From assembly GCA_030390025.1 (NCBI GenBank), contig JASTWF010000339.1, positions 62,001-126,000 of the forward strand: a DNA stretch of 64,000 bases, written 5' to 3'. Both the position numbers and the translations under genes were made by a program. Positions 7,541 through 64,000 of the stretch are shown piece after piece. Numbering within the stretch: the stretch's first letter is position 1; each line of letters opens with the position of its first letter. The stretch comes from Squalus acanthias (taxonomy: Eukaryota). The notes beneath the pieces were generated by a model. The model had not been told where the DNA came from. It saw only the letters and a program-made list of their open reading frames with translations, and did not search any database.

Positions 7541-7546
7541 TTACAG

Positions 7547-12340: not shown

Positions 12341-12504
12341 AGAGTTCCAGATTTTCACTACACTTTGTGTGAAGAAGTGGTTTCTGGCATCACCGCTGAA
12401 CGGTCAAACTCTAATTCTAATTTAAGCCCCGTTGTCCTGGACTCCACAACCAGAAGAAATGTTTTCTCGTTATTTACCCACTAAAATTCTTCAATCCTCC
12501 CTGG

Positions 12505-13040
12505 GTGGGTTCAGTTCTACACTCACTGGTTCCCCTCCCTCTCCTCCCCTGAAGGTGCTGACTCTGGCTGGGTTCAGTTCTACACTCACTGGTTCCCCTC
12601 ACTCTCCTCCCCTGAAGGTGCTGACTCTGGCTGGGTTCAGTTCCACACTCACTGGTTCACCTCCCTCTCCTCTCCTCTCCTCTCCTCCCCTGAAGGTGCT
12701 GACTCTGGCTGAGTTCAGTTCTACACTCACTGGCTCCCCTCCCTCTCCTCCCCTGAAGGTGCTGACTCTGGCTGGGTTCAGTTCTACACTCACTGGTTCC
12801 CCTCCCTCTCCTCCCCTGAAGGTGCTGACTCTGGCTGGGTTCAGTTCCACACTCACTGGTTCCCCTCCCTCTCCTCCCCTGAAGGTGCTGACTCAGGCTG
12901 GGTTCAGTTCCACACTCACTGGTTCCCCTCCCTCTCCTCCCCTGAAGGTGCTGACTCTGGCTGGGTTCAGTTCTACACTCACTGGTTCTCCTCCCTCTCC
13001 TCCCCTGAAGGTGCTGACTCTGGCTGGGTTCAGTTCTACA
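12505..13040 (+). repeat. 63-bp minisatellite (about 8 copies)
   Basis: Unit gggttcagttctacactcactggttcccctccctctcctcccctgaaggtgctgactctggct; same family inverted at 51488-51900. Confidence 0.95.
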
Positions 13041-14529
13041 TTCACAAAATAGAACTCCGTGTACAGAGTGATAACAGTGTGGTAATTTGGACAAGAAAGA
13101 GATTACAAGCAGGTAGAATGCGTTTGGAGCAAAGTTAATAACATAGCCTGAAACTCCAGCACTTAGTGTCATTAAACACCGTCACAAACGCTCAGCCACC
13201 CGTGAGAGAGACAGTTGGGTAAAGCCCTGAATAAAATAACACACTGGGACATATGTACATTGTTGAATTCATCAAGTACTGGACCGGTTACAAATTCTTC
13301 TTGGATACACCTTATCTGTCGTAAACTCTGATAATTCAACGTGTGAATATCTGGCAAGACTGCAACATTATATGATCTGACAGGAGGATCTCCAGTCTAG
13401 TTGCAGTGGGGCTGTGGATCTGAACAGCAATCCCCAGCCAGCCCTGCAGTGGAAATATAGAGAAATGAGCTGGGCTTGGACATACAAGATCAAAATCTCC
13501 AACTGAGACCAAATCAGGGAGCTTGGGAACTGTGAAGAGGACTGTAAGTGACTTCAGTGTAAATACACAGGTTAAAAAAATGGGGTGGGTAAATGATAGA
13601 TGAAATTTATGGCGGAGAAATGTGAGGAGATACATTTTGGGATGAAGCAAAAGGCGATAAAATGTAGAATAAATGCGAGACCTTTAAAAGGAGTAGAGGA
13701 GCAAAGAGACTTAGGTCTATAAGATTCTAGCTGATGCCGTGTCTTATTAATTGGCAGGATCAAGAGTCTAGTGTCAGCAACTTTAATACCTTATTAGAAT
13801 ATAAGATGAGCAGATTCTCTGCCCTCTACCGTACCTTACATTGATCCATCAATCAGAGTAAACTTGCAAGTCGATGTGTCCACAGTAACTTACACGAGGT
13901 CAGCCCGTTGGATGGAACCTCGGGCGCCCTGAGCTTGATCTCCGGTGTCTCCAGTCCCGACTGCCCCCTTACATTAGGATCCCCTCAGTTTTATACCCTG
14001 TAGTGATCCATCTCTGGAACCTGACTCTTCTTTGTCTTCTCAGCTGGGTTTTGGCAGGAAGCGAGGGAAAGACAGCTGGAACTTCTCTAATCTGTGATTT
14101 ACAAGGACACTTTCCCTGGTTCCCAGCAGTTACTTTTCTTCAGTATTTGTCTCAACATCCCTGAACTAACCTACCTATTGTTGATGGTGTTATTTCTTAT
14201 AGTTTCACAATTATAGCTATAAAGATGACACATTATAATCTAACGTATTCTATTACTCATTCTGGTTCAATCTTATATTGTGGTTACTAACAGACAAACA
14301 CTGTTCTTTCCCCTGATCTGATGAGAGTTTGCACCCAGTGGATTCAGTGGAATGGAATGTCTTATCAGTGTTGCCATGGCGACCTGTCTGCAGTGAAAGA
14401 CCAGTTTGAGTTCCTAACTCAGACTAAATTTCTCTTTCTCATAATAAACATACCAGAAATTTAATGACAGTGTATTTTAGCCATGTTGTTAATATCTCTA
14501 AAACCTACAAGGGGTTCAGATACACAAAC

Positions 14530-14929: not shown

Positions 14930-15633
14930 CAGGTACTGCACGAGTTAGACACAGAGTAAAGCTTCCTCTACACTTTCCCAGCAAACACTCCCAGGGCAGG
15001 TACAGCACGGGTTAGATACAGAGTAAAGCTCGCTCTACACTGTCCCATCAAACACTCCCAGGGCAGGTACAGCACGGGTTAGACACAGAGTAAAGCTCCC
15101 TCTACACTGTCCCAGCAAACACTCCCAGGGCATGTATAGCACGGGTTAGATACAGAGTAAAGCTCCCTCTACACTGTCCCAGCAAACACTCGCGGGGCAG
15201 TTATAGCACGGGTTAGATACAGAGTAAAGCTCCCTCTATACTGTCCCATCAAAAACTCCCAGGGCAGGTACAGCACGGGTTAGATACAGAGTAAAGCTCC
15301 CTCTACACTGTCCCAGCAAACACTCCCGGGGCAGGTATAGCACGGGTTAGATACAGAGTAAAGGTCCCTCTGCACTGTGCCATCAAACACTCCCAGGGCA
15401 GGTACAGCAGAGGTTAGATACAGAGTAAAGCTCGCTCTACACTGTCCCATCAAACACTCCCAGGGCAGGTACAGCGTGGGTTAGATACAGAGTAAAGGTC
15501 CCTCTACACTGTCCCAGCAAACACTCCCGGGGCAGGTATAGCACGGGTTACATACAGAGTAAAGGTCCCTCTACACTGTCCCATCAAACAATCTCAGGGC
15601 AGGTACAACACGGGTATAGATACAGAGTAAAGC
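14930..15633 (-). repeat. 67-bp satellite, short array (about 10 copies)
   Basis: Unit gggcaggtacagcacgggttagatacagagtaaagctccctctacactgtcccatcaaacactccca, the reverse complement of the 53323-59760 unit. Confidence 0.95.
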
Positions 15634-19158: not shown

Positions 19159-20066
19159 TCATTTAACTAATTTAACAATTAGACTCATTGGATATTTCAC
19201 CCCATTCTTTAACTCCTCTCTGAATTTACTCTGGGTCCCTGCATAAATAAACGGGTTGATGCAGGAACTCAAAAGCTGAAGGATAAATCCGCTTTCATTC
19301 AGAATAAAATTTGATTGATTGATATTTGTACCTGAAAAATAAGTAAGTTTCGCAATCCGGACATAGAGGAATCTTATAAGAAACAACAACCATAACAGGA
19401 TGAAAATGCCCGAGATACAGAAGAGTAAGAGGATGGACTTTCTCCGCTTCTCCATCTCTGGGTCAATCTGATTCTCTCCATTGCTGTGGGCCCGGAGTCT
19501 CCTGCGGGCTCTACTGGCCGCTAAAATGTGTCTGACGGTAAGAGCATTGAGCAGCAAAATCAGAATTAATGGGAGACACGGGGATAAAATGCGATTAATC
19601 CAGTCATATGCGATCCATGCTAGTGAGGTATAAAATGTTGATGTTATGCTGCAGAACCAGGGATTATTGTTAATTGTGTACAACGGTTCATATATAAAAT
19701 ATAAGAAGGTAGCTTTCAAACAGTTTAAGACACAGACCGTTCCTTTAACCACCGCCGCCGTTTTATCGGTGCAATATTTTATTTTCAGCTTCTGGCAACA
19801 AATGGCGACAAATCGATCAAAGGTGAAAGCGACCGTTACCCAGACAGAACTGTCGGTGACTGCATAGATTAGGGCAAAACGGAGACTACAGACCGGAGTG
19901 ATAGACAGGAAACTAAACGGGAAATAAATACCACCAATCCGGTTAAATATCACAGCGGTGATAATGACCAGAAGATCCGTCATCGCCATGGATACCAGGT
20001 ACAGAGTGATACATCTGGAGAGACCGCACCTTCCTCGGAACAGGATCACAATCACTGCCAAGTTAG
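19159..20066 (-). CDS. GPR139-like class A GPCR, coding exon 2 (intact)
   Basis: Uninterrupted ORF with 7TM features, DRF and NPFIY motifs; acceptor ttacAG at 20068-20067; joins exon 1 in phase 1 (G|CT = Ala) to give 325 aa. Confidence 0.9.
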
Positions 20067-20073
20067 CTGTAAC

Positions 20074-21210
20074 AGAGAGAGAGAGAGAGAGAGAAATTGA
20101 GAGAGTGACAGAGAGTGAATGTGTGTGAGAGAGAGGGAGAGAGAGTGAATGTGTGTGAGAGAGAGGGAGAGCGAGTGAATGAATGAGAGAGGGAGAGAGA
20201 GTGAATGTGTGTGAGAGAGAGGGAGAGAGAGTGAATGTGTGTGAGAGAGAGGGAGAGAGAGTGAATGAGTGTGTGAGAGAGGGAGAGCGAGTGAATGAGT
20301 GTTAGAGAGAGTGAATGAGTGTGAGAGAGGGGGAGAGTGAATGTGTGTGAGAGAGAGGGAGAGAGAGTGAATGAGTGTGTGAGAGAGGGAGAGCGAGTGA
20401 ATGAGTGTTAGAGAGAGGGAGAGAGAGTGAGTGAGTGTTAGAGAGAGGGAGAGCGAGTGAATGAGTGTTAGAGAGAGGGCCAGAGAGTGAATGAGTGTGT
20501 GAGAGAGGGAGAGCGAGTGAATGAGTGTTAGAGAGAGGGAGAGAGAGTGAATGAGTGTTAGACAGAGGGCCAGAGAGTGAATGAGTGTGAGAGAGGGAGA
20601 GCGAGTGAATGAGTGTTAGAGAGAGGGAGAGAGAGTGAATGAGTGTGTGAGTGAGAGAGAGAGTGAATGTGTGTGAGAGAGAGGGAAAGAGATTGAATAT
20701 GTGTGAGAGAGAGGGAGAGAGAGTGAATGTGTGTGAGAGAGGGAGAGAGTATTAATGTGTCTGTGAGAGAGTGAGAGAAAGTGAATGTGTGTGAGAGAGA
20801 GGGAGAGAGAGTTAATGTGTGTGAGAGTGAGGGAGAGAGTGTGAATGCGTGTGTGAGAGAGGGAAAGAGATTGAATATGTGTGAGAGAGAGGGAGAGAGA
20901 GTGAATGTGTGTGAGAGAGAGGGAGAGAGAGTTAATGTGTCTGAGAGAGAGGGAAAGAGATTGAATATGTGTGAGAGAGAGGGAAAGAGATTGAATATGT
21001 GTGAGAGAGAGTGAGAGAGAGTTAATGTGTGTGAGAGAGAGGGAGAGAGAGTGAATGTGTGTGAGAGAGAGTGAGAGAGAGTTAATGTGTGTGAGAGAGA
21101 GGGAGAGAGAGTTAATGTGTGTGAGAGAGAGTTAATGTGTGTGTGAGAGAGAGAGAGAGAGTTAATGTGTGTGAGAGAGAGTGAGAGAGAGTAAATGTGT
21201 GTAAGAGCGA
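20074..21210 (-). repeat. About 30-bp CT-rich minisatellite, expanded copy
   Basis: (gagagagggagagagagtgaatgtgtgtga)n on the + strand; paralogue of 7140-7540. Confidence 0.9.
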
Positions 21211-21884: not shown

Positions 21885-24800
21885 ACAGTAAGTAGTGGGA
21901 ATGTTATGGGCTAATGATCCAGAGACGTGAGTTGAAAACCCACCACGACAGCTGGGGAATTTAAATTCAATTAATTACATAAATCTGGAATAGAATGCTA
22001 GTATCAGTAAAGGTGACCAAGTAACAGATTGTTGTAACAACACATCTGGCTCACGAATGTATTTTAGGGAAGGAAATCTGCCATTATTACCTGTGCTGGC
22101 CTATCTGTGACTCCAGACCCACAGCAATGTGGTTGTCTCGTAACTTCCCTCTGAAATGGCTGAGCAAGCCACTCAGTTGAAAAAAAAACACTGCGCAAAT
22201 TAATAAGAATAAAACCGGACGCACCACGCAGCATCGACCTCGGCATCGGCTACGGACACCCAGCCCAGCCCAGTCGACCCTACATATTCCTCCTCATCAA
22301 CATCTGGGGACTTGTGCCAAAATTGAGACAGCTGTCCCACAGACTAGTCAAGCAACAGCCTGACATCGTCATACTCACCGAATCATACCTTTCAGCCAAT
22401 ATCCCAAATTCCCCAATGCCCCAAACTCCTCCATCACAATCCCTGGGAATGTCCTGTCCCACCAGCAGGACAGACCCACCAGGGTGGCGGCACAGTGGTA
22501 TACAGTTGGTAAGGATCCCACAAGATTGAAATCGGACCCCAGGGAGTCACATGGATTCAGGTCAGGCATGGACAATGAAACCTCCTTCAGATTACCACTT
22601 ATCACCCTCCCTCAGCTGATGAATCAGCACTCCTCCATGTTGAACAACACTTGGAAGAAGCTCTGAGAGTAGCAAGGGCACAGAATGTACTCTGGGTGGG
22701 GGACTTCAAACTCCATCACCAGGAGTGGCTCGGTAGCACCACTACATGAAGAATATAACTGCCAGTCTGGACTGCGACAGGTGGTGGGAGAACCAACACG
22801 AGAGAAAAACCTACTTGACCTCATCCTCACCAATCTACCTGTCGCAGATGCATCTGTCCATGAAAGCATTGGTAGCAGTGGTCACCGCACAGTCATTGTG
22901 GAGACGAAGTCCCGTCTTCACACTGAGGACACCCTCCATCGTGTTGTGTGGCATTATCACCGTGCTAAATGGAATAGATTCAGAACAGATCTAGCAGCTC
23001 AAAACTGGGCATCCATGAGGCGCTGTGGGCCATCAGCAGCAGCAGAATTGTATTCCACCTCAATCTGTAACCCCATGGCCCGGCATGTCCCTCAATCTAC
23101 CATTACCATCAAGCCAGGGGACCAACCCTGGTTTAATAAGGAGTGTAGAAGAGCATGCCAGGGGCAGCACCAGGCGTACCTAAAATGCGGTGCCAAGCTG
23201 GGGAAGCTGAAACACAGGACTACATGCATGCTAAAAAGCGGAAGCAGCATGCTATAGACAGAGCTAATGATCCCACAATCAACGGATCAGATCAAAGCTC
23301 TGCAGTCCTGCGACATCCAGTCTTGAATGGTGGTGGACTATTAAACAACTAAAGGGAGGAGGCGGCTCCATGAATATCCCCATTCTCAATGATGGTAGAG
23401 CCCAGCACGTGAGTGCAAAAGACAAAGCTGAAGCATTTGCAACCATCTTCAGCCAGAAGCGCCGAGTAGATTATCTATATCGGCCTCCTCCTGAGGTCCC
23501 CACCACCACAGAAGCAATTCTTCAGCCAATTCACTCCGCGTGATATCAAGAAACGGCTGAGCGCGGTGGATACATCAAAGGCTGTGGGTCCCGACAACAT
23601 CCCGGCTATCGTGCTGAAGACTTGTGCTCCAGAACTAGCCGCGCCTTTAGCGAAGCTGTTCCAGTACAGCTACAACACTGACATCTATCCGATAATGTGG
23701 AAAACTGCCCAGGTATGTCCTGTCCACAAAAAGCAGGATAAATCCAATCCGGCCAATTACTGCCCCATCAGTCTACGCTAAATCATCAGCAAAGTGATGG
23801 AAGGTGTCATCGACAGTGCTATCAAGCAGCACTTACTCACCAATAACTTGCTCACTGATGCCCATTTTGGGTTCCGCAAAGACTACTCGGCTCCCGACCT
23901 CATTACTGCCTTGGTCCAAACATGGACAAAGGAGCTGAATTCCAGAGGTGAGATGAGAGTGACTGCCCTTGACATCAAGGCAGCATTTGACCGAGTGTGG
24001 CACCAAGGAGCCCTAGTAAAACTTAAGTCAATGGGAATCAGGGGGAAGACTCTCCATTGGCTGGAGTCACTCCTAGCACAAAGGAAGATGGTTGTGGTAG
24101 TTGGAGGTCAATCATCACAGCCCAAGCATATCGCTGCAGGAGTTCCTCAGGGCAGTGTCGCAGGCCCAACCATCTTCAGCTGCTTCATCAATGACCTTCC
24201 CTCCAACATAAGGTCAGAAATGGGGATGTTCGCTGATGACTGCACAGTGTTCAGCGCCATTCACAACTCCTCAGACAATGAAGAAGTCCATGCCCACATG
24301 CAGCAAGACCTGGACGACGTTCAGGCTTGAGCTGATAAGTGGCAGGTAACATTCGCGCTACACAAGTGCCAGGCAATGATTATCTCCAACAATCGAGTGT
24401 CTAACCAACTCCCCTTGACATTCAACGGCAATACCATCGGGGAATCCACCACCATCAATATCCTGGGGGTGACCATTGACCAGAAACTTAACTGGACCGG
24501 CCAGAGAAATACTGTGGTAACAAGAGCAGGTCAGAGGTTGGTATTCTGCGGCGAGTGTCTCACCTCCTGATTCCCCAAAGACTTTCCATCATCTACAAGG
24601 CACAAGTCAGCAGTGTGATGGAATATTCGCCACTTGCCTGGATGAGTGCAGCTACAAAAACAGTCAAGAAGCTCGACACCATCCAAGACAAAGCAGCCTG
24701 CTTGATCCACCACATTAAACATTCATTCCCTCCCCCACCAGCGTAATGAGGCTTCTTTGGCAGCATCTCCGAAACCCGCGAACACTATCACCTAGAAGCA

Positions 24801-34655: not shown

Positions 34656-36515
34656 TTAATAGGGCTTTAACCTAAAATGGGGTGGAGTCAATTGAAGGGA
34701 AATTTATAAATCTAAAGAGAAAAGGCAAGGCTGTAAAGCGATTTGTGTAAAGATACTTGGAGTGTGACAGGAAGGGACCGTGAGTTTAACGGTAATAGTG
34801 CATCAGAGAATAAGGCCAAATCAGGGAAAAATTGAAAATGTTATAATTAAATGCGCTTTATCTGAATGCACAAAGCATTCCTAACAAGATAGAGGAATTA
34901 ATGTCACAAATAGTGAAAAATGGATTTGATCGATAGCAATTACAAAGAACTGGTTGCATGGTGACCAAGGTAGGGTACCAAATATTCCGGTGTACTTGAC
35001 GTTTCGAAAAGAGAGACGAAATGGAAAAGGAATGGGTGTAGCCCTGATAATAAAGGGCGATATAAGAACAGTAGTAAGGAATGATCTTGCCTCGGAAGAG
35101 CAGGATGTAGAATCAGTGTGGGTGGAAATAAGAAATATCAAATGACGGAAACACACTGGTGGGGGTATTTTGTAGGCCCCTGGACAGTCGCTATACTGTT
35201 GCACAGAGTATTATTCAAGAAATAAGAGGAGCCTGTAACAAAGGTAATGGAATAATCGTGGGGGACTTTCATCTTCATATACACTGGACAAATCAAATTG
35301 GCAAAAGCAGTTTCGAGAACGTGTTCATGGAATGCGTTCGAGACACTTTCCTAGAAGAATACGTCGTGGAACCAACCAGGGAAGAGGTTATTTTAGGTCT
35401 TGTCTTGTGTAATGAGACAGCGTTAATTCATAATCTCATAGTAAGGGATCCTCTGTGGAAGAGTGATCATAATATAAAAAAAATCACATTGTGTTCAAGA
35501 GTGACGCACTTAAGTCTGAAACTAGAGTATTAATTTTAAATAAAGCCAATTACAAAGGTATGAGGGCAAGTTAACTATGGTAGATCGGAAAAATAGATTA
35601 AAGTTATGATGGTAGATATGCAATAGGGGAAATTTAAAGACATATTTCATAATTCTCAACGAATGTACATTTCATTGAGAAATAAAAACATCACAGGAAA
35701 AGAGATCCATCCGTGGCTAACTAATAATGTTAAGGATATTATTAGATCAAAAGAAGACGGTTCTAACGTTGCCAAGAAGAGTAGCAAGCCTGAAATTTGG
35801 GAGAGTTTTAAAAAAACAGCAAAGGATGACCAAAATTTGATAACATGGGAGAAAATAGCATGAGAATAAACTAGCAAATGATATCAAAACAGATTGTTAG
35901 AGCTTCTACAAGCATATAAAAAGGAAGAGAGTAGCGAAAGTAAACTTGGGTCTCTTAGAGGCTAAGACAGTAGAAATTATAATGAAGAACCAGGAAATGG
36001 CACAGACGTTAAACAAATATGTTGCACCTGTCTTCACAGCAACAGACACAGAAACATACCAGAAATAGTGGGGAGCCTATGGTGTATTGAGAGTGAGAAA
36101 CTTAAAGTAGTTAATATCAGTAAAGAAAAAGCACTGGTTAAATTAATGGAACTAAAATCCAACAAATTCTCTGGACCTAATGTTTACATCATAGGGTCCT
36201 CAAAGACGTCGCTGCAGAGATAGTGGATGCATTTGTATTGATCTTCCAAATTTCTCTAGATTCTGGAACGGACAGTAGAAAATGTAACACCGCTACTCAT
36301 GAAAGGAGGGAGAAAGAAAACAGGGAACTACAGACCAGTTAGCCTGACATCAGTCATCGGGAAAATGCTGGAATCCATTATTAAGGAAGTGGTAACAGAG
36401 CACTTAGAAAATCATAATATGATTTGGCAGAGTCAACATGGTTTTATGAAAGGGAAATCGTGTTTGACAAATCTATTAGATATTTTTGAGGACATAACTA
36501 GCAGGGTAGATAAAA

Positions 36516-37092: not shown

Positions 37093-38730
37093 ACATAGGA
37101 ACATAGGAACAGGGATAGGCCATTCAGCCCCTCGACCCTGCTCCGCCATTCAATGAGATCATGGCTGATCTACGACCTAACTCCATATACCCAACTTTGG
37201 TCCATATCCATTAATACCGTTGGTTAACAGAAAGCTATTAATCTCCGATTCAAAATTAACAATTGATCTATCATCCATTGCCATTTGCAGAAGAGAGTTC
37301 CAAACTTCTACCACCCGTTGTGTGTAGACGTGTTTCCTAATTCCACTCCTGAAAGGTCTGGCTCTAATTTTTAGACTATGCCCCCTAGTCCTAGAACCCC
37401 AACCAGCGGAAATAGTTTCTCTCTATCTACCTTATCTGTTTCCCTTAATATATTGAAAACCTCTATCAGATCACCCCTTAACCTTCTAAATTCTAGGAGA
37501 TACAACCCTAATTTGTGAAATCTCTCCTCGTAACTTAACCCTTGAAGTCCGGGTATCACTTTGGTAAACCTACGCTGCACTCCCTCCAAGGCCAATATAT
37601 CCTTCCTAAGGTGTGGTGCTCAGAACTACTTACAGTACTCCAGGTGTGGTCTAACCAGGGTTTTGTACAGCAACAGCATAACTTCTACCCCCTGTATTAA
37701 ACTCCTCTAGATATAAAGGCCAGCATTCCATTAGCCTATTGATTATTTTCTGTACCTGTTCGTGACAGTTTAATGATCTATGTGCATGGACCCCCAAGTC
37801 TCTTTGGACCACCACTGTTTTTAACTTTTCACCATTTAGAAAGTACCCTGTTCTATCCTTTTTAGGTCCAAAGTGGATGGCCTCACAGTTGCCTACATTG
37901 AAATCCAATTGCCACAGTTTTGCCCATTCACTTAATATGTCTATATCACTTTGTAATGTTATGCTTTCATCTACACTGCCTACAATGCCACCTATCTGTG
38001 TCATCAGCAAATTTGGAAATATGACTTTCTATGCCATCATCTAATTCGTTAATAAATACTGTGAATAGTTGAGGCCCCAACACAGATGCCTGCGGGACAC
38101 CACAAGTCACATCCTGCCCATTTGAGTACCTACCCATTATCCCTACTGCCTGTCTCCTGCCGCTCAGCCAATTTCCTAACCAGGTCAATAATTTGCCCTC
38201 AATTCCGTGGGCTTCCACCTTAGTTAACAGTCTCGTATGTGAGACTTTATCAAATGCCGTCTGGAAGTCCATATAAATAATATCCATAGACATTTCTCTG
38301 TTCACTACATTAGTTACCTCCTCAAAAAATTCACCCAGGTTTGTCAGGCATGACCTACCTTTCACATGCTGGCTCTTTCCATGATCAACTGAAAATTTTC
38401 GATGTGTTCAATCACCCTATCCTTAATTATAGACTCTAGCAATTTCCCGACAATGGATATTAGGCTAACTGGTCTATAATTCACAGGTATCCCTCTCTCG
38501 CCATTCTTAAATAGTGGAGTGACAAGCGCAATTTTCCAATCTAAAGGAACTGTTCCTGAATCGAGAGAGTTTGGAAGATTATAGTTCGGGCTTCTGCAAT
38601 GTGCTCACCTACTTCCTTTAAAATCCTGGGATGGAAACCATCTGGTCCTGGGGATTTATCACTCTTTAGTGCTATTATTTTCGTCATTACTATTATTTTA
38701 ATTACGTTAATTTTATTGAGTCCCTGTCCT
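37093..38730 (-). mobile_element. 5'-truncated CR1 LINE
   Basis: DFQTAFDKV, GVPQASVLGP, KFADD, LEGVQRRFT; acataggaacatagg tail at about 37093. Confidence 0.88.
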
Positions 38731-43966: not shown

Positions 43967-44865
43967 TTATTTAATTAAATTACCTATTAGTTTGAGCGGA
44001 TATTGCACCATATTCTTTAACTCTTCCCTAAATTTGCTCTGTGTCACTGCATAAATAAATGTGTTTGTGCAGCAACTCAACAGCTGAAGCATTTGCACTT
44101 TCTCGGAGAATAAATTTGGGGTCACTGAAACCGTTGATTTTATAATCATTTGTAAATCGTTCATATAAGAATTGTACAACATACGTCATCCACAACAGGA
44201 TGAAACTGCCCGAGATGGTGAAGAGTAAAACGATGGACTTTTTCCGGCTCTCCATCTCTGGGTCACTCTGATTCTCGCCATTGCCGTGGGCCCGGAGTCT
44301 CCTGCGGGCTCTACTGGCCGCTAGAATGTATCTGACGGTCAGAGCATTGAGCAGCAAAATCAGAATGAATGGGAGACACGGGGTTAAAATGCGGTCACTC
44401 CATTGGAAAGCTTCCCGTACGGGTGAAGTATTATGGAGTTCCTTCAGTCTGCAATACCACGGGACATTGTTAATTATGATAATGGGTTCATGTATAAAGT
44501 ACCAGGGGATATCGATTAAACATCCCAGGGCACAGATCGTTCCTATTACAATGGCAGCCGTTCTCTTGGTGCAATATTTTGTTTTCAGCTTCTGGCAACA
44601 AATGGCCACAAATCGATCGAAGGTGAAAGCGACCGTTAACCAGACAGAACTGTCTCTGGCTGCATAGATTAACGTAATGCTGAGACTACATACGGGCGTG
44701 ATGGACAGGAAGCTACCTGGAAAATAAATAGCAGGAATCCGGTTTAATATCACAGCGTGATAATGACCAGGAGATCCGTCACCGCCATGGACACCAGGTA
44801 CCGAGTGATACATCTGGAGAGACCGCACCTTCCTCGGGACAGGATCACAATCGCCACTAAATTAA
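43967..44865 (-). pseudogene. GPR139-like GPCR exon 2, frameshifted pseudogene
   Basis: Acceptor ttacAG 44867-44866; NLVAIVILSRGRCG, FTFDRFVAICC, NTFIY; frameshifts near 44757 (1-nt loss in ACC GCT) and near 44095. Confidence 0.87.
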
Positions 44866-49419: not shown

Positions 49420-50910
<1,491 letters not shown>

Positions 50911-51487: not shown

Positions 51488-51900
51488 CAGTGAGTGAACT
51501 GAACCCAGCCAGAGTCAGCACCTTCAGAGGAGGAGAGGGAGGGGAACCAGAGAGTGTAGAACTGAACCCAGCCAAAGTCAGCACCTTCAGGGGAGGAGAG
51601 AGAGGGAACCAGTGAGTGTAGAACTGAACCCAGCCAGAGTCAGCACCTTCAGGGGAGGAGAGGGAGGGCAACCAGAGAGTGTAGAACTGAACCCAGCCAA
51701 AGTCAGCACCTTCAGGGGAGGAGAGGGGAACCAGTGAGTGTAGAACTGAACCCAGCCAGAGTCAGCACCTTCAGGGGAGGAGAGGGAGGGGAACCAGCGA
51801 GTGTAGAACTGAACCCAGCCAGAGTCAGCACCTTCAGGGGAGGAGAGGGAGTGGAACCAGTGAATGTAGAACTGAACCCAGCCAGAGTCAGCGCCTTCAG
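51488..51900 (-). repeat. 63-bp minisatellite (about 6 copies) in the ZNF intron
   Basis: Reverse complement of the 12505-13040 unit. Confidence 0.93.
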
Positions 51901-52092: not shown

Positions 52093-52935
52093 GCTGTGAG
52101 AAGGGGAGGATTTACAGACAGGAAACTCAAACCAAACATCATTTTAAGATCTGACAGAGTCACTCCATTCATCAGGACCTGAATATCATCGGCCTTTGAA
52201 TGTGGAAGGAGAAATGTTTGTCTGTTTTGTCTGTGGGAAAAGATTTCAAAAATCAGTGTGACTGGAAAAGCACCGAGACACACACACCCGAGTGAGAGTG
52301 TTCCAGTGCACTGACTGTGGAAAGAGCTTTAACCAGTTACACAGCCTGAAAAAACATCGCATCGTTCACAGCGGGCAGAAACCGTACACGCGTTCTGTGT
52401 GTGGACGAGGTTTCAACTGATCGTCCAACCTGGAGAGACACAAGGACACCCGCACCACGGAGAATCCGTGGAAATGTGGGGACTGTGGGAAGGGATTCAA
52501 CGCAGTCACACTGGGGAGAGACTGTTCACCTGCTCTGTGTGTGGGAACAGATTCGCTCGGTCATCCCACCTGCTGACACACAAGTGACTTCACACTGGGG
52601 AGAGGCCGTTCACCTGCTCTGAGTGTGGGAAGGGATTCACTAACTCCTCCAGCCTCACTTCACACCAACGCGTTCACACTGATAAGAGACCTTTTAAATG
52701 TTCTGAGTGTGAGAAGAGCTTTAAAAGCACAAGGGATCTTCTGACACACCAGCGAGTTCACACTGGGGAGTGGCCGTTCACCTGTTCCGAGTGTGGGAAG
52801 GGATTCACTCAGCCATCCCAGCTGCTGAGACACCAGCGAGTTCACACTGGGGAGAGGCCGTTCACCTGTTCCGTATGTGGGAAGGGATTCGTTCAGTCAT
52901 CCACCCTGCTGAGACACCAGCGAGTTCACAAGTGA
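52093..52935 (+). pseudogene. C2H2 zinc-finger gene B, probable pseudogene
   Basis: Acceptor ccttttacAG 52091-52092; tandem fingers with HTGERPF linkers; TGA stops at 52259, about 52417 and 52585 and a frameshifting deletion at about 52500; four intact fingers 52588-52932; stop 52933-52935. Confidence 0.82.
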
Positions 52936-53322: not shown

Positions 53323-56300
53323 TGTACCTGCCCTGGGAGTGTTTGATGGGACAGTATAGAGGGAGCTTTACTCTGTATCTAACCAGTGCTGTACCGGCCC
53401 TGGGAGTGTTTGATGGGACAGTATAGAGGGAGCTATACTCTGTAACTAACCCCTTCTATAACTGCCCTCGGAGTGTTTGATGGGACAGTATAGAGCGAGC
53501 TTTACTCTGCATGTAACCCGTGCTGTACCTACCCTGGGAGTGTTTGGTGGGACAATGTAGAGGGATCTTTACTCTGTATCTAACCCGTGCTGTACCTGGC
53601 CAAGGAGTGTTTGATGGGATAATGTAGAGGGAGTTTTATTCTGTATCTAACCTGTGCTGTGCCTGCCCTGGGAGTGTTTGATGGGACAGTACAGAGGAAG
53701 CTTTACTCTGTATCTAACCCGTGCTGTACCTGCCCTGTGAATGTTTGATAGGACAGTGTAGAGGGAGCTTTACTCTGCATCTAATCAGTGCTGTAGCTGC
53801 CCTGGGAGTGTTTGATGGGACAGTGTAGTGGGAGCTTCACTCCGCATCTAATCCGTGCTGTACCAGTCCTGGGAGTGTTTGATGGGATAGTGTTGATGGA
53901 GTTTTACTCTGTATCTAACCCGTGCTGTACCTGCCCGGGGAGTGTTTGATGAGACAGTCTCGAGTGAGTTTTACTATGTATCTAACCTGTGCTGTACCTG
54001 CCCTGGGAGTGTTTGATGGGACAGTATACAGCGATCTTTACTCTGCAGCTAACCCGTGCTGTACCTGCCCTGGGAGTGTTTGGTGGGACAGTGCAGGGGG
54101 AGCTTTACTCTGTATTTAACCCGTGCTGTACCAGCCCTGGGAGTGTTTGATGGGACAGTGTGGAGGGAGCTTTACTCTGTATCTAACCCGTGCTGTCCCT
54201 GCCCTGGAGTGTTTGATGGGACAGTGTAACGGGAGTTTTACTCTGCATGTAACCTGTGCTGTACCTGCCCTGGGAGTGTTTGATGGGACAGTGTAGAGGG
54301 AGCTTTGTGCTGTACCTGCCCTGGGAGTGTTTGATGCGACAGTATACAGCGATCTTTATTCTGTAGCTAACGCGTGCTGTACCTACCCTGGGAGTGTTTG
54401 GTGGGACAATGTACAGGGAGCTTTACTCTGTCTCTAACCCGTGCTGTACCTGCCCTGGGAGTGTTTGATGGGATAGTGCAAAGGGAGCTTTATTCTGTAT
54501 CTAACCCGTGCTGTACATGCCCTGGGAGTGTTTGATGGGATAGTGTAAAGGGAGTTTTACTCTGTATGTAATCCGCGCTGTACCTTCCCTGGGAGTGTTT
54601 TACAGGACAGTGTAGAGGGTGCTTTACTCTGTATCTAACCATGCTGTACCTGCTCGGGGAGTGTTTGATGGGACAGTATAGAGGGAGCTATACTCTGTAA
54701 CTAACCCCTTCTATAACTGCCCTCGGAGTGTTTGATGGGACAGTATTTCGCGAGCTTTACTCTGTATGTAACCCGTGCTGTACCTACCCTGGGAGTGTTT
54801 GGTGGGACAATGTAGAGGGATCTTTACTCTGTATCTAACCCGTGCTGTACCTGGCCCAGGAGTGTTTGATGGGATAATGTAGAGGGAGTTTTATTCTGTA
54901 TCTAACCTGTGCTGTGCCTGCCCTGGGAGTGTTTGATGGGACAGTATAGAGGAAGCTTTACTCTGTATCTAACCCGTGCTGTACCTGCCCTGTGAATGTT
55001 TGATGGGACAGTGTAGAGGGAGCTTTACTCTGCATCTAATCCGTGCTGTACCTGCCCTGGGAGTGTTTGATGGGACAGTGTAGTGGGAGCTTTACTCTGC
55101 ATCTAATCCGTGCTGTACCAGCCCTGGGAGTGTTTGATGGGACAGTGTAGAGGGAGCTTTGTGCTGTACCTGCCCTGGGAGTGTTTGATGGGACAGTATA
55201 CAGCGATCTTTACTCTGTAGCTAACCCGTGCTGTACCTACCCTGGGAGTGTTTTGTGGGACAATGTACAGGGAGCTTTACTCTGTCTCTAACCCGTGCTG
55301 TGCCTGCCCTGGGAGTGTTTGATGGGATAGTGTTGATGGAGTTTTACTCTGTATTTAACCCGTGCTGTACCTGCCCTGGGAGTGTTTGATGAGACAGTAT
55401 AGAGGGAGCTTAACTCTGTATCTAACCCGTGCTGTACCTGCCCTGGGAGTGTTTGATGGGACAGTGTAGAGGGAGCTTTACTCGGTATCTAAACCATGCT
55501 GTACGTGCCCTAGAAGTGTTTGATGGGATAGTGTAAAGGGAGCTTTACTCTGTATGTAACCCGCGCTGTACCTTCCCTGGGAGTGTTTGATGGGACAGTG
55601 CAGAGGGAGCTTTACTCTGTCTTTAACCCGTGCTGTAACTGCCCTGCGAGTGTTTGATGGGTCAGTATAGAGGGAGCTTTACTCTGGTACTAACCCCTGC
55701 TGTACCTGCCCTGGGAGTGTTTGATCGGACAGTGTAGAGGGAACTTTACTCTGTATCTAATCCGTGCTGTACCTGCCCTCGGAGTGTTTGATGGGACAGT
55801 ATTGAGCGAGCTTTACTCTGTATGTAACCCGTGCTGTACCTGCCCGGGGAGTGTTTGATGGGACAGTCTCGAGCGAGTTTTACTATGTATCTAACCCGTG
55901 CTGTACCTGCCCTGGGAGTGTTTTACAGGACAGTGCAGAGGGAGCTTTAATCTGTATCTAACCCGTGCTGTACCTGCCCTGTGAATGTTTGATGGGACAT
56001 TGTAGTGGGAGCTTTACTCTGTTTCTAACCCGTGCTGTACCTGCCCGGGGAGTGTTTGATGGGACAGTATCCAGCGAGTTTTACTCTGTATCTAACCCGT
56101 GCTGTAGCTGCCCTGGGAGTTTTGATGAGACAGTATAGAGGGAGCTTTACTCTGTATCTATACGTGCTGTACCTGCCCTGGGAGTGTTTGATGGGATAGT
56201 GTATAGGGAGCTTTACTCTGTATCTGACCCCACACTGTACCTTCCCTGGGAGTGTTTGAAGGGTCAGTGCAGGGGGAGCTTTACTCTGTATTTAACCCGT

Positions 56301-59300
56301 GCTGTTCCTGCCCTGGAAGTGTTTGATGGGACAGCCCAGAGGGAGCTTTACTCTGTATCTAACCCGTGATGTAACTGCCCTGGGAGTGTTTGACGGGACA
56401 GTAGAGAGGGAGCTTTACTCTGGATCTAACCCGTGCTGTACCTGCCCTGCGAGTGTTTTACAGGACAGTGTAGAGGGAGCTTTGCTCTGTATCTAACCAT
56501 GCTGTACCTGCTCGGGGACTGTTTGATCGGACAGTATAGAGGGAGCTATAATCTGTAAATAACCCCTGCTATAATTGCCCACGGAGTGTTTGATGGGACA
56601 GTATTTCGCGAGCTTTACTCTGTATGTAACCCGTGCTGTACCTGCCCTAGCAGTGTTTGATGGGATAATGTAGAGGGAGTTTTATTCTGTATCTAACCTG
56701 TGCTGTGCCTGCCCTGGGAGTGTTTGATGGGACAGTATAGAGGGAGCTTTACTCTGTACCTAACCCGTGCTGTACCTGCCCTGTGAATGTTTGATGGGAC
56801 AGTGTCGAGGGAGCTTTACTCTGTATCTAATCCGTGCTGTACCTGCCCTGTGAGTGTTTGATGGGACAGTGTAGTGGGAGCTTTACTCTGTATCAAATCC
56901 GTGCTGTACCAGCCCTGTGAGTGTTTGATGGGTTAGTGTAAAGGGAGCTTTACTCTGTATCTAACCTGTGCTGCACCTGCCCTGGGAGTGTTTGATGGGA
57001 CAGTGTAGAGGGAGCTTTACTCTGGATCTAACCCGTGCTGTACCTGCCCTGCGAGTGTTTTACAGGACAGTGTAGAGGGTGCTTTACTCTGTATCTAACC
57101 ATGCTGTACCTGCTCGGGGAGTGTTTGATGGGACAGTATAGAGGGAGCTATACTCTGTAACTAACCCCTTCTATAACTGCCCTCGGAGTGTTTGATGGGA
57201 CAGTATTTCGCGAGCTTTACTCTGTATGTAACCCGTGCTGTACCTACCCTGGGAGTGTTTGGTGGGACAATGTAGAGGGATCTTTACTCTGTATCTAACC
57301 CGTGCTGTACCTGGCCCAGGAGTGTTTGATGGGATAATGTAGAGGGAGTTTTATTCTGTATCTGACCTGTGCTGTGCCTGCCCTGGGAGTGTTTGATGGG
57401 ACAGTATAGAGGAAGCTTTACTCTGTATCTAACCCGTGCTGTACCTGCCCTGTGAATGTTTGATGGGACAGTGTAGTGGGAGCTTTACTCTGCATCTAAT
57501 CCGTGCTGTACCTGCCCTGGGAGTGTTTGATGGGACAGTGTAGTGGGAGCTTTACTCTGCATCTAATCCGTGCTGTACCAGCCCTGGGAGTGTTTGATGG
57601 GATAGTGTTGATGGAGTTTTACTCTGTATCTAACCCGTGCTGTACCTGCCCTGGGAGTGTTTGATGGGACAGTGTAGAGGGAGCTTTACTCTGTATCTAA
57701 CCCGTGCTGTCCCAGCCCTGGGAGTGTTTGCTGGGATAGTGTCGTTGAAGTTTTACTCTGTATCTAACCCGTGCTGTACCTGCCCGGGGAGTGTTTGATG
57801 GGACAGTCTCGAGCGAGTTTTACTATGTATCTAACCCGTGCTGTACCTCCCCTGGGCGTGTTTGATGGGACAGTGTAGAGGGAGCTTTACTCTGTATCTA
57901 ACCCGTGCTGTACCTGCCTTAGGAGTGTTTGATGGGACAGTGTAGAGGGATCTTTAATCTTTATCTAACCCATGCTGTACCTGCCCCAGGAGTGTTTGAT
58001 GGGACAGATTAGAGCGAGCTTTACTCGAAATCTAACCCATGCTGTACCTGCCCCAGGAGTGTTTGATGGGACAATGTAGAGGGAGCTTTACTCTGTATCT
58101 AACCCGTGCTGTACCTGCCCTGGGAGTGTTTGATGGGACAGTGTAGAGGGAGCTTTACTCTGTATTTAACCTGTGCAGTACCTGCCCTGGGAGTGTTTGA
58201 TGGGACAGTGTGGAGGGAGCTTTGTGCTGTACCTGCCCTGGGAGTGTTTGATGGGACAGTATACAGCGATCATTACTCTGTAGCTAACCCGTGCTGTACC
58301 TACCCTGGGAGTGTTTGGTGTGACAATGTACAGGGAGCTTTACTCTGTATTTAACCCGTGCTGCACCTGCCCTGGGATTGTTTGATGGGACAGTGTAGAG
58401 GGAGCTTTACTCTGTATCTAACCCGTGCTGTACCTGCCCTGGGAGTGTTTGATGGGACAGCACAGAGGGAGCTTTACTCTGTATCTAACCCGTGCTGTAC
58501 CTGCCCTTGGAGTGTTTGATGGGACAGTAGAGAGGGAGCTTTACTCTGGATCTAACCCATGCTGTGCCTGCCCTGCGAGTGTTTTACAGGACAGTGTAGA
58601 GGGTGCTTTACTCTGTATCTAACCATGCTGTACCTGCTCGGGGAGTGTTTGATGGGACACTGTAGTGGGAGCTTTACTCTGTATCTGATCCGTGCTGTAC
58701 CAGCCCTGGGAGTGTTTGATGGGACACTGTAGTGGGAGCTTTACTCTGTATCTGATCCGTGCTGTACCAGCCCTGGGAGTGTTTTACAGGACAGTGTAGA
58801 GGGAGCTTTACTCTGTATCTAACCCGTGCTGTACCTGCCCTGTGAATGTTTGATGGGACAGTGTAGTGGGAGCTTTACTCTGTATCTGACCCGTGCTGTA
58901 CCTGCCCGGGGAGTGTTTGACGGGACAGTATCCAGCGAGTTTTACTCTGTATCTAACCCGTGCTGTAGCTGCCCTGGGAGTTTTGATGAGACAGTATAGA
59001 GGGAGCTTTACTCTGTATCTAACCCGTGCTGTACCTGCCCTGGGAGTGTTTGATGGGATAGTGTATAGGGAGCTTTACTCTGTATGTAACCTTTGCTGTA
59101 CCTGCCCTGGGAGTGTTTGATGGGACAGTACAGAGGGAGCTTTGCTCTGTATCTGACCCCATACTGTACCTGCCCTGGGAGTGTTTGATGGGATAGTGTA
59201 AAGGGAGTTTTACTCTGTATGTGAACCGCGTTGTACCTTCCCTGGGAGTGTTTGATGGGACAGCACAGAGGGAGCTTTGCTCTGTATTTAACCCGTGCTG

Positions 59301-59760
59301 TACCTGCCCTGGGAGTGTTTGATGGGACAGCCCAGAGGGAGCTTTACTCTGTATCTAACCCGTGCTGTACCTGCCCTGGGAGTGTTTGACGGGACAGTAG
59401 AGAGGGAGCTTTGCTCTGGATCTAACCCGTGCTTTACCTGCCCTGCGAGTGTTTTACAGGACAGTGTAGAGGGAGCTTTACTCTGTATCTAACCATGCTG
59501 TACCTGCTCGGGGACTGTTTGATGGGACAGCATAGAGGGAGCTATAATCTGTAAATAACCCCTGCTATAACTGCCCTCGGAGTGTTTGATGGGACAGTAT
59601 TTCGCGAGCTTTACTCTGTATGTAACCCGTGCTGTACCTGCCCTAGCAGTGTTTGATGGGATAATGTAGAGGGAGTTTTATTCTGTATCTAACCTGCGCT
59701 GTGCCTGCCCTGGGAGTGTTTGATGGGACAGTATAGAGGGAGCTTTACTCTGTACCTAAC
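53323..59760 (+). repeat. 67-bp satellite array (about 6.4 kb)
   Basis: Unit tgggagtgtttgatgggacagtgtagagggagctttactctgtatctaacccgtgctgtacctgccc, with recurring variant blocks. Confidence 0.97.
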
Positions 59761-62572
59761 TTTCCTTTTCTGGGGGTCTGGGTTGTTTGCAGCGCACACA
59801 AGACAGTTTGCACAGAACTCGCGGACCTGTTCCCTGAGCCCTGGCCACCATCCCGCTTGCTCTACCCGTTGCCAGGTAACCTCGGGCCCGGGGTGCCCTG
59901 CCCCTGGTCCCTCGTGAGCCAACTGGAGGAATTCCCTCCTGTGCTGCTGCGGCACAACCCACTGCTCCTCGCGGAACAGCATGCCTTCCTTAACTGAGAG
60001 GGTTGCCGTACTGTACGGACCCTCTACCTGCTTCCCCTCAGCAATGGTTTTGAGGACTGCTTTTAGGGCGGGATCCTGGTTCTGGACGGTCTTAAGGTCT
60101 AGGGGCAATGCTACCCTGGGGTTCCCGGGATTCCCGTCCCTGCCTTGGATCGCTGCCATGGGTCTGGTCCCATAGGGGTCCCAGAAAATGCCGTTGCGGG
60201 CACCTTCCCTGGCTAGCGCATCCGCCTGCTGGTTGCCCTCCCCACGGGGCTCTGTGGAGGAGTGAGCTTTCACCTTATGGATGAAAATCTCCCCTTCCTC
60301 CCCTACTGCTGCTAGGATCTTTTTCAGCAAGGGCTTCACCGTTAAAGGTCGCCCGTCCGCGGAGGTGTATCCACGGCGGGACCAAATGGCCAGGTATTCC
60401 GTACACGAATTGCAGGTGAACATACTGTCCGAGCAAATCGTGTATGGGGTTGGGAAAATGTCTGGGTGGGTAACAACGTACACCACAGCAGACAGCTCAG
60501 CCTGCTGCGCGCTCATGGTGCTAGGGAGCTTGATCGCCAGGGCAAGGTTTGCCGCAGGGTCATAAACTCCACACCCCGTGAGTCGTTCGCCAGCAGATAC
60601 TGTGCTAGAACCATCAACATAAATCTCGCGCCCAGTGGGATGTATCCCGGCCCGCAAACCTATGTTGACGTCCCACACCCCTTCCACCGAACATCGGTGG
60701 GCTGTACCGGGGTATACCAAATTGGCCGCAACTGGGCTCGCAAAGACCTTTAACTCTAAGATCCATCTGGGAAAGAAGAAGGGTCCAGCGCGCAATACGC
60801 ACGCTGCTTACGGTCCCATCTTTAATCCTCCCATCTAGAAGCATCTTAGTTGGTGTGTGATGGGTGAGGAGAGTGATGGGAGAGAGCCCTGTGAAGATCG
60901 CTGATCTTTTCACAGCCCAATGCGTGGCTAAAAGGTGCCTTTCGCAATTGGAAAAACTTCTCTCCACATCCGTTAACACCCTGGACGAATAGACAACCGG
61001 CCTCAGCTTGCCGTGACGCTCTTGGAGCAGCACAGCGCTCAAGCTGTCCCCGCTGGCAGCTACCTCCAGGAAAAACTCCTTCCCCCCATCTATGGCCCCT
61101 AAAGCTGGCGCGGTCTGCAGATCCCTTTTTAACTTCTCGAAGGCTGCTTGGCAGCCCTCGTCCCAAGACAACTCCACTCCCTTATGGAGGAGTCGGAGGA
61201 GCGGCGCCGCTGTGGCCGCATAGTCTTCGATAAAATCCCTGCAGTAACCGGTCAGTCCCAAGAAGGACCTCACACCCCTTATGTTGTTAGGAATCGGTAA
61301 CTCTTGCACCGACTCCCTCCTAGCCTTATCTATGGCTCTTTCCCCAGCGCGAATGGTCAGCCCCAGGAATTTTACTTCCTGCTGACTGATACGTGCTTTC
61401 TTAGGGTTTACTTTAAAACCCTTTCTCGCTAGCAGCTCCAATAACTCGTCCAGCAGTGGTCCATGCTCCTCCCTTGAATCCGTAAATAGGAGCAAATCAT
61501 CCACGTACTGCACTATCTGATTGGGCTGACTAAACTCCTTTAAACTTCCTGCCATACACTGATGGAAAATACTGGGGCTATTGTGGAAACCCTGTGGCAG
61601 ACAGTTCCATGTGTACTGTTGTCCTTTGAAAGTAAAGGCAAACTTGTACTGGTCCTCTCGCCGCAGCGGGATGGACCAAAAACCGTTCGAGATATCCAGC
61701 ACCGTGAACGTGGTCGCGGACGCTGGGATACTCCCTATTAGGTCAGCAACTGCTGCTACCGTGGGTGCGCAGGCGGGAATGTTACTGTTAAGGACTCTGT
61801 AGTCCACCGTGGCCCTCCACGAATTATCCGGCTTCCTAACCGGCCATAATGGGGAGTTCACGTGTGTGGCTATCGGCCTCAACACGCCCTGCTGCACCAA
61901 GGAGGACATTGCTGTCTCCATATCGGGTTCTGCTTCTTTGGGGAAGTTATACTGTTTTTGGGGCCGGGTCATGGGGTCCCCATCTACGCTGACCTCAAAC
62001 CCGGTAACCCTCCCACAATCGTGCTTGTGGGTTGCAAACGCGTGCATATTATCTGACACGTACGTTTGCATGTCCGTTGGGACATCTGCGACCATAAGCC
62101 CGAGGTCGTAGCCTCCGGATGGCTGCATGGTACACAGGACCCCTGTTTCTTCCTCCCCCGGAATTACCACTACCTCGCCTTTTTCACTCTTAGCCCCCCA
62201 GAGACAATGATTTCTGAGGTCCACGAGGATCCCGTGTCCTGATAGGAGATCGGACCCGAGGATACCTCTTCCACCCCCCTCCTGCCATTCCATCAGTATG
62301 CACTTCCACTTGATGTGAAGTGCCCCCAAACGAATGGATAGTGGAAAGGAGAACGCGCCAGCCTGTTCTTTTCCCGTGAACCCCGCTAATGTGAATGGGA
62401 CCTTGGTAGATAGCGGTGAGTCAAAAGGGCTATCTGTATGAATCACGGTGCAAGAAGCTCCCGTGTCCAACAAATAACTACCCTTCTGTTTCTCTACCTC
62501 CATCTCCACCAAGGGTCGCTTCCACGCATCATAGCTGAGCGGACACAGGTAGACGGGCTGCGCGGGCTCTAG
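59761..62572 (-). pseudogene. pol: pol (protease, RT, tether, RNase H, integrase N-terminus)
   Basis: LLDTGA; NSPLWPVRKPD, LDISNGFW, LPQGF, YVDD; IYVDGS / QAEL / SDS / ADALA; HEGPGAGH...CANCLVC; one frameshift near 60730. Confidence 0.88.
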
Positions 62573-64000
62573 TCATTGGGTATGGTTAGACGGTCCTGCG
62601 GCACCTACGGGGCCGGTAGCAACCGCCACCTTTCCATGTGCACTCATGAAGTTGCGCATGGCTCCCAACACTGATTCGAGGTCGTTGGGAGGGGTGGGTG
62701 CACTAGCTTCCCTAGCAGAGACAGGCATCTAGGCTCGGGCTGCGGGATTTTTATCCCTGGAATTCTTCCAAGGGTTCCTGCAGTTCTCGCGCCAGTGCCC
62801 TGTCCTCCCACACCCGTAACAAGCATTATTTGCCTGCGGGGCGCGGTTACCCTCCTGATGCCACTCCCCTTGAGCCGGGGCTGCGGGTCGTACCTCATGT
62901 ACTTTTCCCTTAAGGGGACGTGTTCCCATACCCCTTATGTTGCGATATCCTATCGTGAGTCGATTCAAGACCGACTCTTCCGTAATGTTGGGGTCATTGG
63001 GATCAAACCACGCTTTTGCCTGCTCTCTGACGGCTGGTAAACTGTTGGCTACTATGCACCTAAGCCAATGATTTAAACCGGCGCCGTCCACATCGTCGCG
63101 CTCTGGCGCACCTGGACAGCTGCGCTGATATACTGGCCACAGCCTGTCGGCAAAAACCTTCGGGGGTTCTCCCTCCATCTGCACTGTCTGTCCCACTCTA
63201 GCAAACGGACCTTCATCGTCCGCCCCCAACACTTCTAGGACCTCATTTTTCAATGCCTCATAAGTCTTGGTTCCCCTCTTGCTCTCGTCCGAGAGACACT
63301 GAAGGATTGAACTGCCTAACGAAAACAACAGCATTTTTGCTGTTTCCCCATCATCGCAGCCGTTGATGGCTGCGGTTTGCTCAATTTCTCTGAAATGTAC
63401 GGAAGGGTCGTCTGACTCGGTCAGCTTCCGTACGTGATTTATCATAACTCTCAGCTGGTGTGAGCTGTGAGGCAACACAAGCTGGTTGAGGAGAACCCCT
63501 TCTTCCTCCCCGTTTCTGTTTGGGCCCCTTTTTATACCCGTAACCGGATACAACGGTCCCTTTTCCACTTCTCTCTCAGTGGGCTCTTTCGTTTCTTCCA
63601 CTACTTCCTCCCTTACCCAGGTTTCCGAATAGCTGGGTGGCGCGGAGGGCGCAGTGGCTAATACTTCCTTTGCTTTACTTGGTGGGGATTTCTGAAACTC
63701 CTCATTTACTAGCGGCTGGTGCGCTGACGGACTGATAAGGCACACCATGCCGTGCGCTTTGTTCACGGCCTTTTTGAGGTGCTCTATCTCCTGTTGGCAG
63801 GCGCTATGATCGGCCCCCTGAAACTTATCCTCAAGGGCCAACTTATATGCCGCCCTAACCCCCGTTAAGCTCTCTTCCTGGGTTCTTATCTGGGCAGCTT
63901 GGCGGGCACATCGTTCCTTTAGTCTGCCCTCACTTAACTTTGCCTCAGTGACCTGGCACTCGAGGTAATCTATCCTTGTTTTATGGTGACTGGTGATTTC
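62573..64000 (-). pseudogene. gag: gag (coiled-coil-like N-part, putative capsid region, CCHC knuckle)
   Basis: Frame open from the window end; CYGCGRTGHWRENC; internal TAG at 62729-62731, then open to TGA at 62573-62575. Confidence 0.8.

Follow-up and report, generated by a model that had tools for sequence, protein, structure and literature searches.

A truncated endogenous retrovirus from a multi-copy elasmobranch family, probably of the snakehead retrovirus-related class III group

Introduction

A tether followed by a second RNase H domain is the standard retroviral layout, common to all retroviruses. The described systems closest to the element analysed here are endogenous retroviruses (ERVs) related to the snakehead retrovirus (SnRV), the clade Huo of Xu et al. 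2018, which is described as occurring in all major vertebrate lineages (PMC6001957). The Clade Huo labels in S2 Fig of PMC6001957 list An_an_ERV3, Ap_sp_ERV9, La_ch_ERV4 and Ca_mi_ERV1, all of them look-alikes of our element, around Snakehead_retrovirus, and the look-alike entries in its S1 Data come from eel, coelacanth, turtles and elephant shark. The entry ca_mi_ERV1 (PMC6001957) and CmiERV scaffold 2 of Han 2015 (PMC4422223) have LTR text in common, and CmiERV lineage I of the elephant shark is reported there to cluster with SnRV. In six chondrichthyan genomes, 2843 clade III RT loci have been counted (PMC11089739).

The element studied here lies at one end of the window, by which we mean the whole 64-kb stretch of DNA that was analysed. 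An initial annotation had read it as a young, basal, retrovirus-related lineage of a cartilaginous fish, comparable to lokiretroviruses (Loki) and Odin elements and distinct from ordinary Gypsy. We find that it is most probably an ordinary class III ERV, of a type published before from skates and elephant shark, and not a missing-link lineage. Its closest published counterpart is le_er_ERV4 of the S1 Data of PMC6001957, to which 121 of 138 RT residues are identical by eye (88%), placing both in the same narrow lineage; that entry consists of a 414-nt RT fragment only, so that gag, tether, RNase H and the gag/pol junction lie outside it.

Results

Layout of the element

The retroviral element fills the final 4240 bases of the window (59761-64000, minus strand), where Pfam matches and reading of the open frames give the gene order gag-(in-frame stop)-pro-RT-tether-RNase H-IN. 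This is the gag-pro-RT-RH-IN order of Retroviridae, with the full integrase (IN) seen in the relative P0001. The features of the element and of its 3' flank are:

62573..64000 (-): gag, with its 5' end past the window; capsid region, N-terminal part coiled-coil-like by eye
about 62777-62824 (-): single CCHC knuckle in gag; Pfam E 0.011, under the curated cut-off
62569..62575 (-): natural gag stop TGA followed by CTAG, in frame with pol; putative readthrough site
62240..62524 (-): aspartic protease with DTG; Pfam RVP E 2.7e-4, gag-asp_proteas 8.3e-4
61217..61900 (-): RT core with YVDD, open frame; Pfam RVT_1 E 1.3e-36
60737..61171 (-): tether (connection), a Gypsy-type RNase H fold without the catalytic D, E, D; from Pfam, motifs and alignment
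60729..60732 (-): frameshift lesion at the tether/RNase H boundary; P0001 is open there
60190..60633 (-): second RNase H with D-E-D-D and a KVxAH motif; Pfam RNase_H PF00075 E 3.6e-21
59761..59955 (-): integrase zinc-binding domain (H2C2); Pfam Integrase_H2C2 E 3.6e-18
53323..59760 (.): 67-bp tandem satellite of about 96 units, abutting and cutting off the element

The Pfam scores of the RT, tether, RNase H and H2C2 domains are well past chance level. The window holds no env, LTR or PBS, the 5' end of the element lies beyond 64000 and its 3' end is missing, and no other pieces of the element were found elsewhere in the 64-kb window. Judged by comparison with a skate Gag (P0171), we estimate that the 5' part beyond the window end would comprise roughly 130 codons of gag together with the PBS and the 5' LTR.

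Relatives were taken as the best 150 matches from a search of 1.84 billion representatives. The nearest among the matches listed is P0001, a protein of 1145 aa and 82% identity that carries both RNase H domains in one frame together with a full integrase, and the nearest named relatives among these best 150 matches are from bullfrog, Xenopus and coelacanth, at 42-52% identity. Relatives of the window element carry the automatic name NYNRIN-like.

State of the copy

The initial annotation had counted about two lesions in 4.2 kb, and this count is correct: a stop within gag at 62729-62731 and a frameshift near 60730, to which the 3' cut at 59761 has to be added. The gag frame holds two stops, a TAG at 62729-62731 and a TGA at 62573-62575. 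Because the Gag homologues P0171, from a skate, and P0172, from another contig, continue beyond the position of the first and end at that of the second, 62729-62731 is a lesion and 62573-62575 the natural end of gag; furthermore, at 62729-62731 every aligned contig differs from the window in four of four sequencing runs, and the TAG is thereby ruled out as the natural gag end. Near 60730, contigs in all four runs likewise differ from the window in length, showing that the frameshift is not common to all copies, and P0001 reads open across this position. It is due to this frameshift that the two RNase H domains of the window stand in different frames.

The integrase catalytic core and everything else 3' of the zinc domain are missing, with the satellite starting at 59760, while other copies run on into the rve integrase core, among them P0001, P0170 and a contig of run X10 that extends 643 letters past 59760. 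The element/satellite boundary at 59760/59761 may be either a real truncation or an assembly join. As neither a full Gag, nor a Pol with RNase H, nor an integrase core can be made from it, the window copy is a dead relic.

Gag and the gag/pol junction

The Gag P0171 of the skate Rhinoraja longicauda measures 588 aa and is 56% identical over 98% of the query. Four loci of this Gag family are annotated in that species (P0171 and P0174-P0176), two of them of 588 aa, which suggests that the Rhinoraja longicauda genome holds little-damaged copies. The window Gag aligns with the SnRV Gag only near the knuckle. Its features in the ESM Atlas come closest to Gag of the Ty3/PEG10 type (score 0.93), which is a lead only, and single-sequence fold prediction of the capsid region was of low confidence (pLDDT 37).

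At the junction, SnRV, too, carries a single in-frame stop, in the corresponding position ahead of the protease. UGA CUAG has been described as a readthrough-prone context (10.1101/2021.04.18.440353) and occurs in alphavirus readthrough sites; gamma- and epsilonretroviruses use readthrough, with UGA in three fish and frog retroviruses in other contexts (PMC13517186). The TGA-CTAG context of this lineage was not met in a narrow literature search, and no unusually stable RNA structure was found in the 116 nt 3' of the gag stop (z -0.22). XtERV-S, a class III element of Xenopus, resembles the window element in having gag and pol in frame across a TGA and in carrying a tether and RNase H, but it has YIDD and no zinc knuckle (PMC8278194), whereas the window has YVDD and one CCHC. 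Foamy viruses are described as lacking a Gag zinc knuckle and as having pol in a separate frame (PMC8278194), and ERV4 (Chong et al. 2014) is tabulated without a Gag zinc finger (PMC4299795 Table 1). The window element differs from Spumaretrovirinae in its CCHC and in a pol that is in frame with gag, and from ERV4, which had no row in our trees, in its one CCHC.

Tether and second RNase H

The presence of two RNase H folds, on which the initial annotation was built, holds: a degenerate first fold (61171-60737, minus strand) carries EVAAS (61066-61052), RHLLA (60940-60926) and THH (60865-60857), and a D-E-D-D second fold (60633-60190, minus strand) carries YVDGS (60621-60607), QAEL (60504-60493), SDS (60432-60424) and ADALA (60225-60211). 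Pfam assigns RT_RNaseH_2 (E 7.7e-22) and RT_RNaseH (E 4.7e-18) to the tether, after RVT_1, and RNase_H and Integrase_H2C2 to the next frame. In the alignment, the catalytic sites of the first fold read A/H/H in the window versus D/E/D in nine of nine Gypsy controls, while the second RNase H retains D, E, D and D. The element thus has none of the three acids of the catalytic RNase H that directly follows RT in Gypsy, and its degenerate tether with a D-E-D-D second RNase H is the arrangement of Retroviridae. Across a 127-row comparison, 28 of the 35 rows with a second RNase H (many of them near-identical frog copies) keep no first-fold acid, seven keep one and none keeps more, and among the 92 rows that lack a second RNase H, 72 retain all three. 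The second RNase H matches solved structures (PDB) of human RNase H1 and of the gammaretroviral and foamy enzymes, with E values of about 1e-7 to 1e-8.

The same dual arrangement is present in the snakehead retrovirus, in WEHV-1 and in one Loki-motif protein, and therefore it cannot separate a retrovirus from Loki; it sets the element apart from Gypsy and from nothing else. A tree of the RNase H (28 rows) left the window in an unresolved group and paired Loki with foamy at 95/92, not with the window, a pairing already given in PMC7947760.

RT placement

Tree rows were hand-picked, and Odin, fish foamy-like ERVs and ERV4 were not represented among them. The SnRV row, P0047, matches the SnRV row of Data Set S2 (PMC9040795) and a 10,688-nt viral contig at 99%; the seven Loki rows were labelled by motif match to the same Data Set S2, not by name. 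P0117 is named WEHV-1, close relatives carry names from bullfrog, Xenopus, coelacanth and turtle, and P0131, given an ERV-L-like label on motif grounds, is a long-branched protein from Polypterus. References for foamy (15 loci) and alpha/beta (13 loci) were taken from motif scans.

In the RT core tree (59 rows), Retroviridae including the window formed a clade at 99/93 with Loki as its sister; foamy branched first within it, leaving the non-foamy side at 93/90, and the window grouped with SnRV at 86/60. P0077, a look-alike of CmiERV (itself not in the trees), fell inside the window's 10-row group (88/93). Retroviridae including the window reached 100/100 in the RT+tether tree (52 rows, without class II), again with Loki as sister, and a quick mixture-model tree (77 rows, no foamy) recovered the retroviral side including the window at 98, with Loki in the same position. 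In both the RT core and the RT+tether trees, the Gypsy rows made up one side of a 100/98-99 branch excluding the window, and a foamy clade at 100/100 also excluded it; the window lay outside class I, class II and foamy in the trees sampled for each. The SnRV RT core is 46% identical to that of the window, above all 15 foamy (32-39%) and all 13 alpha/beta loci.

These trees bear directly on whether the element could be a Gypsy retrotransposon with an independently gained second RNase H. Such a gain has occurred in the plant Tat elements, which belong to Gypsy, and the H2C2-type integrase zinc domain and the Ty3-like Gag features would fit it. The approximately unbiased (AU) test on the RT core rejects grouping of the window pair with Gypsy, however (p 0.012), and the RT is closer to the solved structures of MLV-type (210 bits) and foamy (196) than to that of Ty3 (146), so that with the Gypsy branch excluding the window this reading is refuted by the RT trees as sampled and we give it practically no credence. 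The element is retrovirus-like and not ordinary Gypsy, as had been proposed from the initial annotation, and the check through RT phylogeny named there found the RT inside Retroviridae and in none of the Gypsy clades.

The reading towards which the initial annotation leaned, that a cartilaginous fish carries an element of lokiretrovirus or Odin type, fares differently. Loki and Odin share the tether and second RNase H with the window, the Loki-motif integrases resemble that of P0001 (see below), and such an element would be new, cartilaginous fish not being named among the Loki hosts in the text of PMC7947760. Against it, grouping of the window pair with Loki is rejected by the AU test on the RT core (p 0.021) and grouping with Loki is rejected on RT+tether (p 4e-5), the window RT lies outside the Loki clade, and its motif is PQGF, as in SnRV, versus PFGY in the Loki and Odin rows of Data Set S2 (PMC9040795). 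Loki further differs in its env, which is Mononegavirales F-like (PMC7947760, PMC9040795), versus a gamma-type env in the clade-mate CmiERV. An Odin RT would be sister to Loki; the comparison with Odin, made by eye against the Odin rows, and the tree position inside Retroviridae both speak against it. The reading is largely refuted and we regard it as highly improbable.

A place outside Retroviridae was not rejected on the RT core alone (AU p 0.127); on RT+tether it was rejected for the window pair (p 0.005) and borderline for the nine-row lineage (p 0.044). Of the term basal in the initial annotation, only a possible deep position inside Retroviridae stands, and a basal lineage outside the retroviruses is not supported. 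Within Retroviridae, the AU test rejected neither a 15-row group placed as sister of the remaining Retroviridae (p 0.355) nor the same group with SnRV (p 0.321).

Integrase

The integrase was compared through P0001 (residues 850-1087), whose identity is 43-49% with integrases of its own group, 43-45% with those of Loki, 32% with that of SnRV, 29-34% with class I-like, 31-33% with foamy and 23-34% with Gypsy integrases. An integrase tree placed the Loki IN beside the coelacanth P0080 at 97/81 and was otherwise unresolved, and as none of three constraints was rejected in the AU test (p 0.46-0.47) the integrase is uninformative on branching. Judged from sequence, the P0001 integrase is best read as a slowly changing type that it has in common with Loki, not as evidence of Loki membership. 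A Loki-like integrase of this lineage was not met in a narrow literature search.

Between the RNase H and the integrase, SnRV Pol (P0047 / L016) has an insert of about 180 residues with two H-x-T/S motifs, and the window's lineage is without it. From these motifs, we presume the insert to be like a 2H phosphoesterase.

The integrase identities, level between Loki and P0001's own group, together with the Loki IN beside P0080, bear on a further reading, in which the element is a true retrovirus and its wider group split off first within Retroviridae, as the sister of foamy viruses and orthoretroviruses together, with an ancestral tether and RNase H, a Loki/CGIN1-type integrase and a Ty3-like capsid. 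The Ty3/PEG10-like Gag features and the sister position left standing by the AU test, with the Retroviridae base a polytomy in the RT+tether tree, are consistent with it. Yet foamy comes first in the RT core tree, grouping with SnRV is equally unrejected, none of the integrase constraints is rejected, and short branches alone raise identity. We consider this reading unlikely.

Family, host and age

Sequence words of the stretch occur in 20 of 24 sequencing runs (10 studies, 7 organism codes), and in the aligned runs four of four cover 30 of 30 bins. The 85,581 aligned records of run X1 divide into 4,641 that are at least 99% alike, 17,829 at 95-99%, 49,093 at 90-95% and 14,018 below 90%. The element belongs to an elasmobranch family of many copies that have diverged to varying degrees. 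As to longer loci, an RT scan of viral contigs found none and a motif pattern gave 0 matches there; in metagenome contigs, the RT scan confirmed 0 of 74 candidates and the motif pattern found eight loci, none of them a relative by tblastn.

The cartilaginous-fish host named in the initial annotation is likely, inferred from the 88% RT match to le_er_ERV4, whose prefix we take to stand for the little skate, Leucoraja erinacea, and from the 56% match to the Rhinoraja longicauda Gag. The youth ascribed to the element from its few lesions is not shown. A datable LTR pair is missing from the window, and the majority of the related X1 contigs are 90-95% alike. Han 2015 takes an LTR divergence of 3.3% to mean 75 million years under an assumed shark rate (PMC4422223), and two lesions are consequently no sign of youth; we rejected the lesion count as an indicator of age.

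Loss of env is common among ERVs, and the family may have lost env and spread in the germ line like ERV-L, which would be compatible with a class III ERV and would explain the many copies. The many divergent copies in the aligned runs and the four Gag loci in Rhinoraja point in this direction, but the clade-mate CmiERV lineage I carries an env (PMC4422223). We hold such a loss to be possible, if somewhat doubtful.

Other features of the window

A long LINE-type ORF2 with endonuclease and RT motifs, presumably of CR1/L2 type, lies at 4272-6929 (-) and is split by one stop into 675 and 209 aa; further LINE fragments lie at 1769-3351, 22673-24330, 35132-35533, 37967-38407 and 49681-50227. Three related open reading frames at 19159-20301 (-), 7699-8145 (+) and 44028-44861 (-) are seven-helix-receptor-like with a DRF motif, and we take them to be GPR139/142-like; the first two make up an inverted repeat (81%, 7137-8274 / 19339-20476). 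The 67-bp satellite occurs twice in opposite orientation (53323-59760 and 14930-15633) and is highly abundant in the aligned runs. Directly ahead of its larger array stands a C2H2 zinc-finger repeat array with an 84-bp period and frame breaks (52300-52935, +), and 63-bp arrays at 12501-13045 and 51496-51900 are inverted copies of one another.

Discussion

The element is probably a defective, 3'-truncated class III ERV provirus of the SnRV-related group (clade Huo), one copy of a multi-copy elasmobranch family. Like the window, exogenous SnRV, a member of clade Huo, has a dual RNase H, a single CCHC and one in-frame gag/pol stop. It differs in that this stop is TAG, in the distant integrase with the long insert before it and in a Gag that is barely alignable. 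CmiERV scaffold 2 resembles the window by eye in its tether motifs, second RNase H, H2C2, single CCHC and in-frame TGA-C junction; CmiERV lineage I is nevertheless a distinct family, with LTRs and a gamma-type env (ISD, CX6CC) recognised by eye (PMC4422223). Several observations weigh against the assignment to the SnRV-related group: the grouping with SnRV reaches 86/60 only and SnRV joins the class I side (87/88) in the RT+tether tree, a place outside Retroviridae withstood the AU test on the RT core and was borderline for the nine-row lineage, the P0001 integrase is nearer to Loki than to SnRV, Gag matches SnRV at the knuckle only, le_er_ERV4 is absent from the extracted S2 Fig labels of PMC6001957, neither env nor LTR has been observed in this family, and the trees are without Odin, fish foamy-like ERV and ERV4 rows.

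In an intact family member of this class III ERV, going by established retrovirology, Gag would end at the TGA and a few ribosomes would read through to produce Gag-Pol, in which the tether would serve as a structural, non-catalytic connection domain, the second RNase H would degrade the RNA template and the integrase would insert the DNA. The ancestor would have had LTRs and a gamma-type env, judging solely from the clade-mate CmiERV.

A bolder version of the deep placement would see here a group of slow evolution that sits at the very base of Retroviridae and predates the split of the foamy viruses, with an ancestral integrase shared with Loki, maybe the donor of NYNRIN/CGIN1, and in elasmobranchs a large, recently active family with alphavirus-like UGA-CUAG readthrough. 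We think this rather improbable. Lokiretroviruses were inferred to have undergone integrase replacement (PMC7947760); if the integrase were instead ancestral and common to the root group and Loki, Loki would not have replaced it. Were the root-most position true, no living group would model the first retroviruses better, and the view of the Loki integrase replacement would change.

As a class III ERV, the element belongs to the commonest ERVs of cartilaginous fish (PMC11089739), and to a lineage sampled since 2018. What this copy adds is the anatomy of a lineage published as a short RT fragment: a one-knuckle Gag, a TGA-CTAG junction and, in the nearest relative, a Loki-like integrase.
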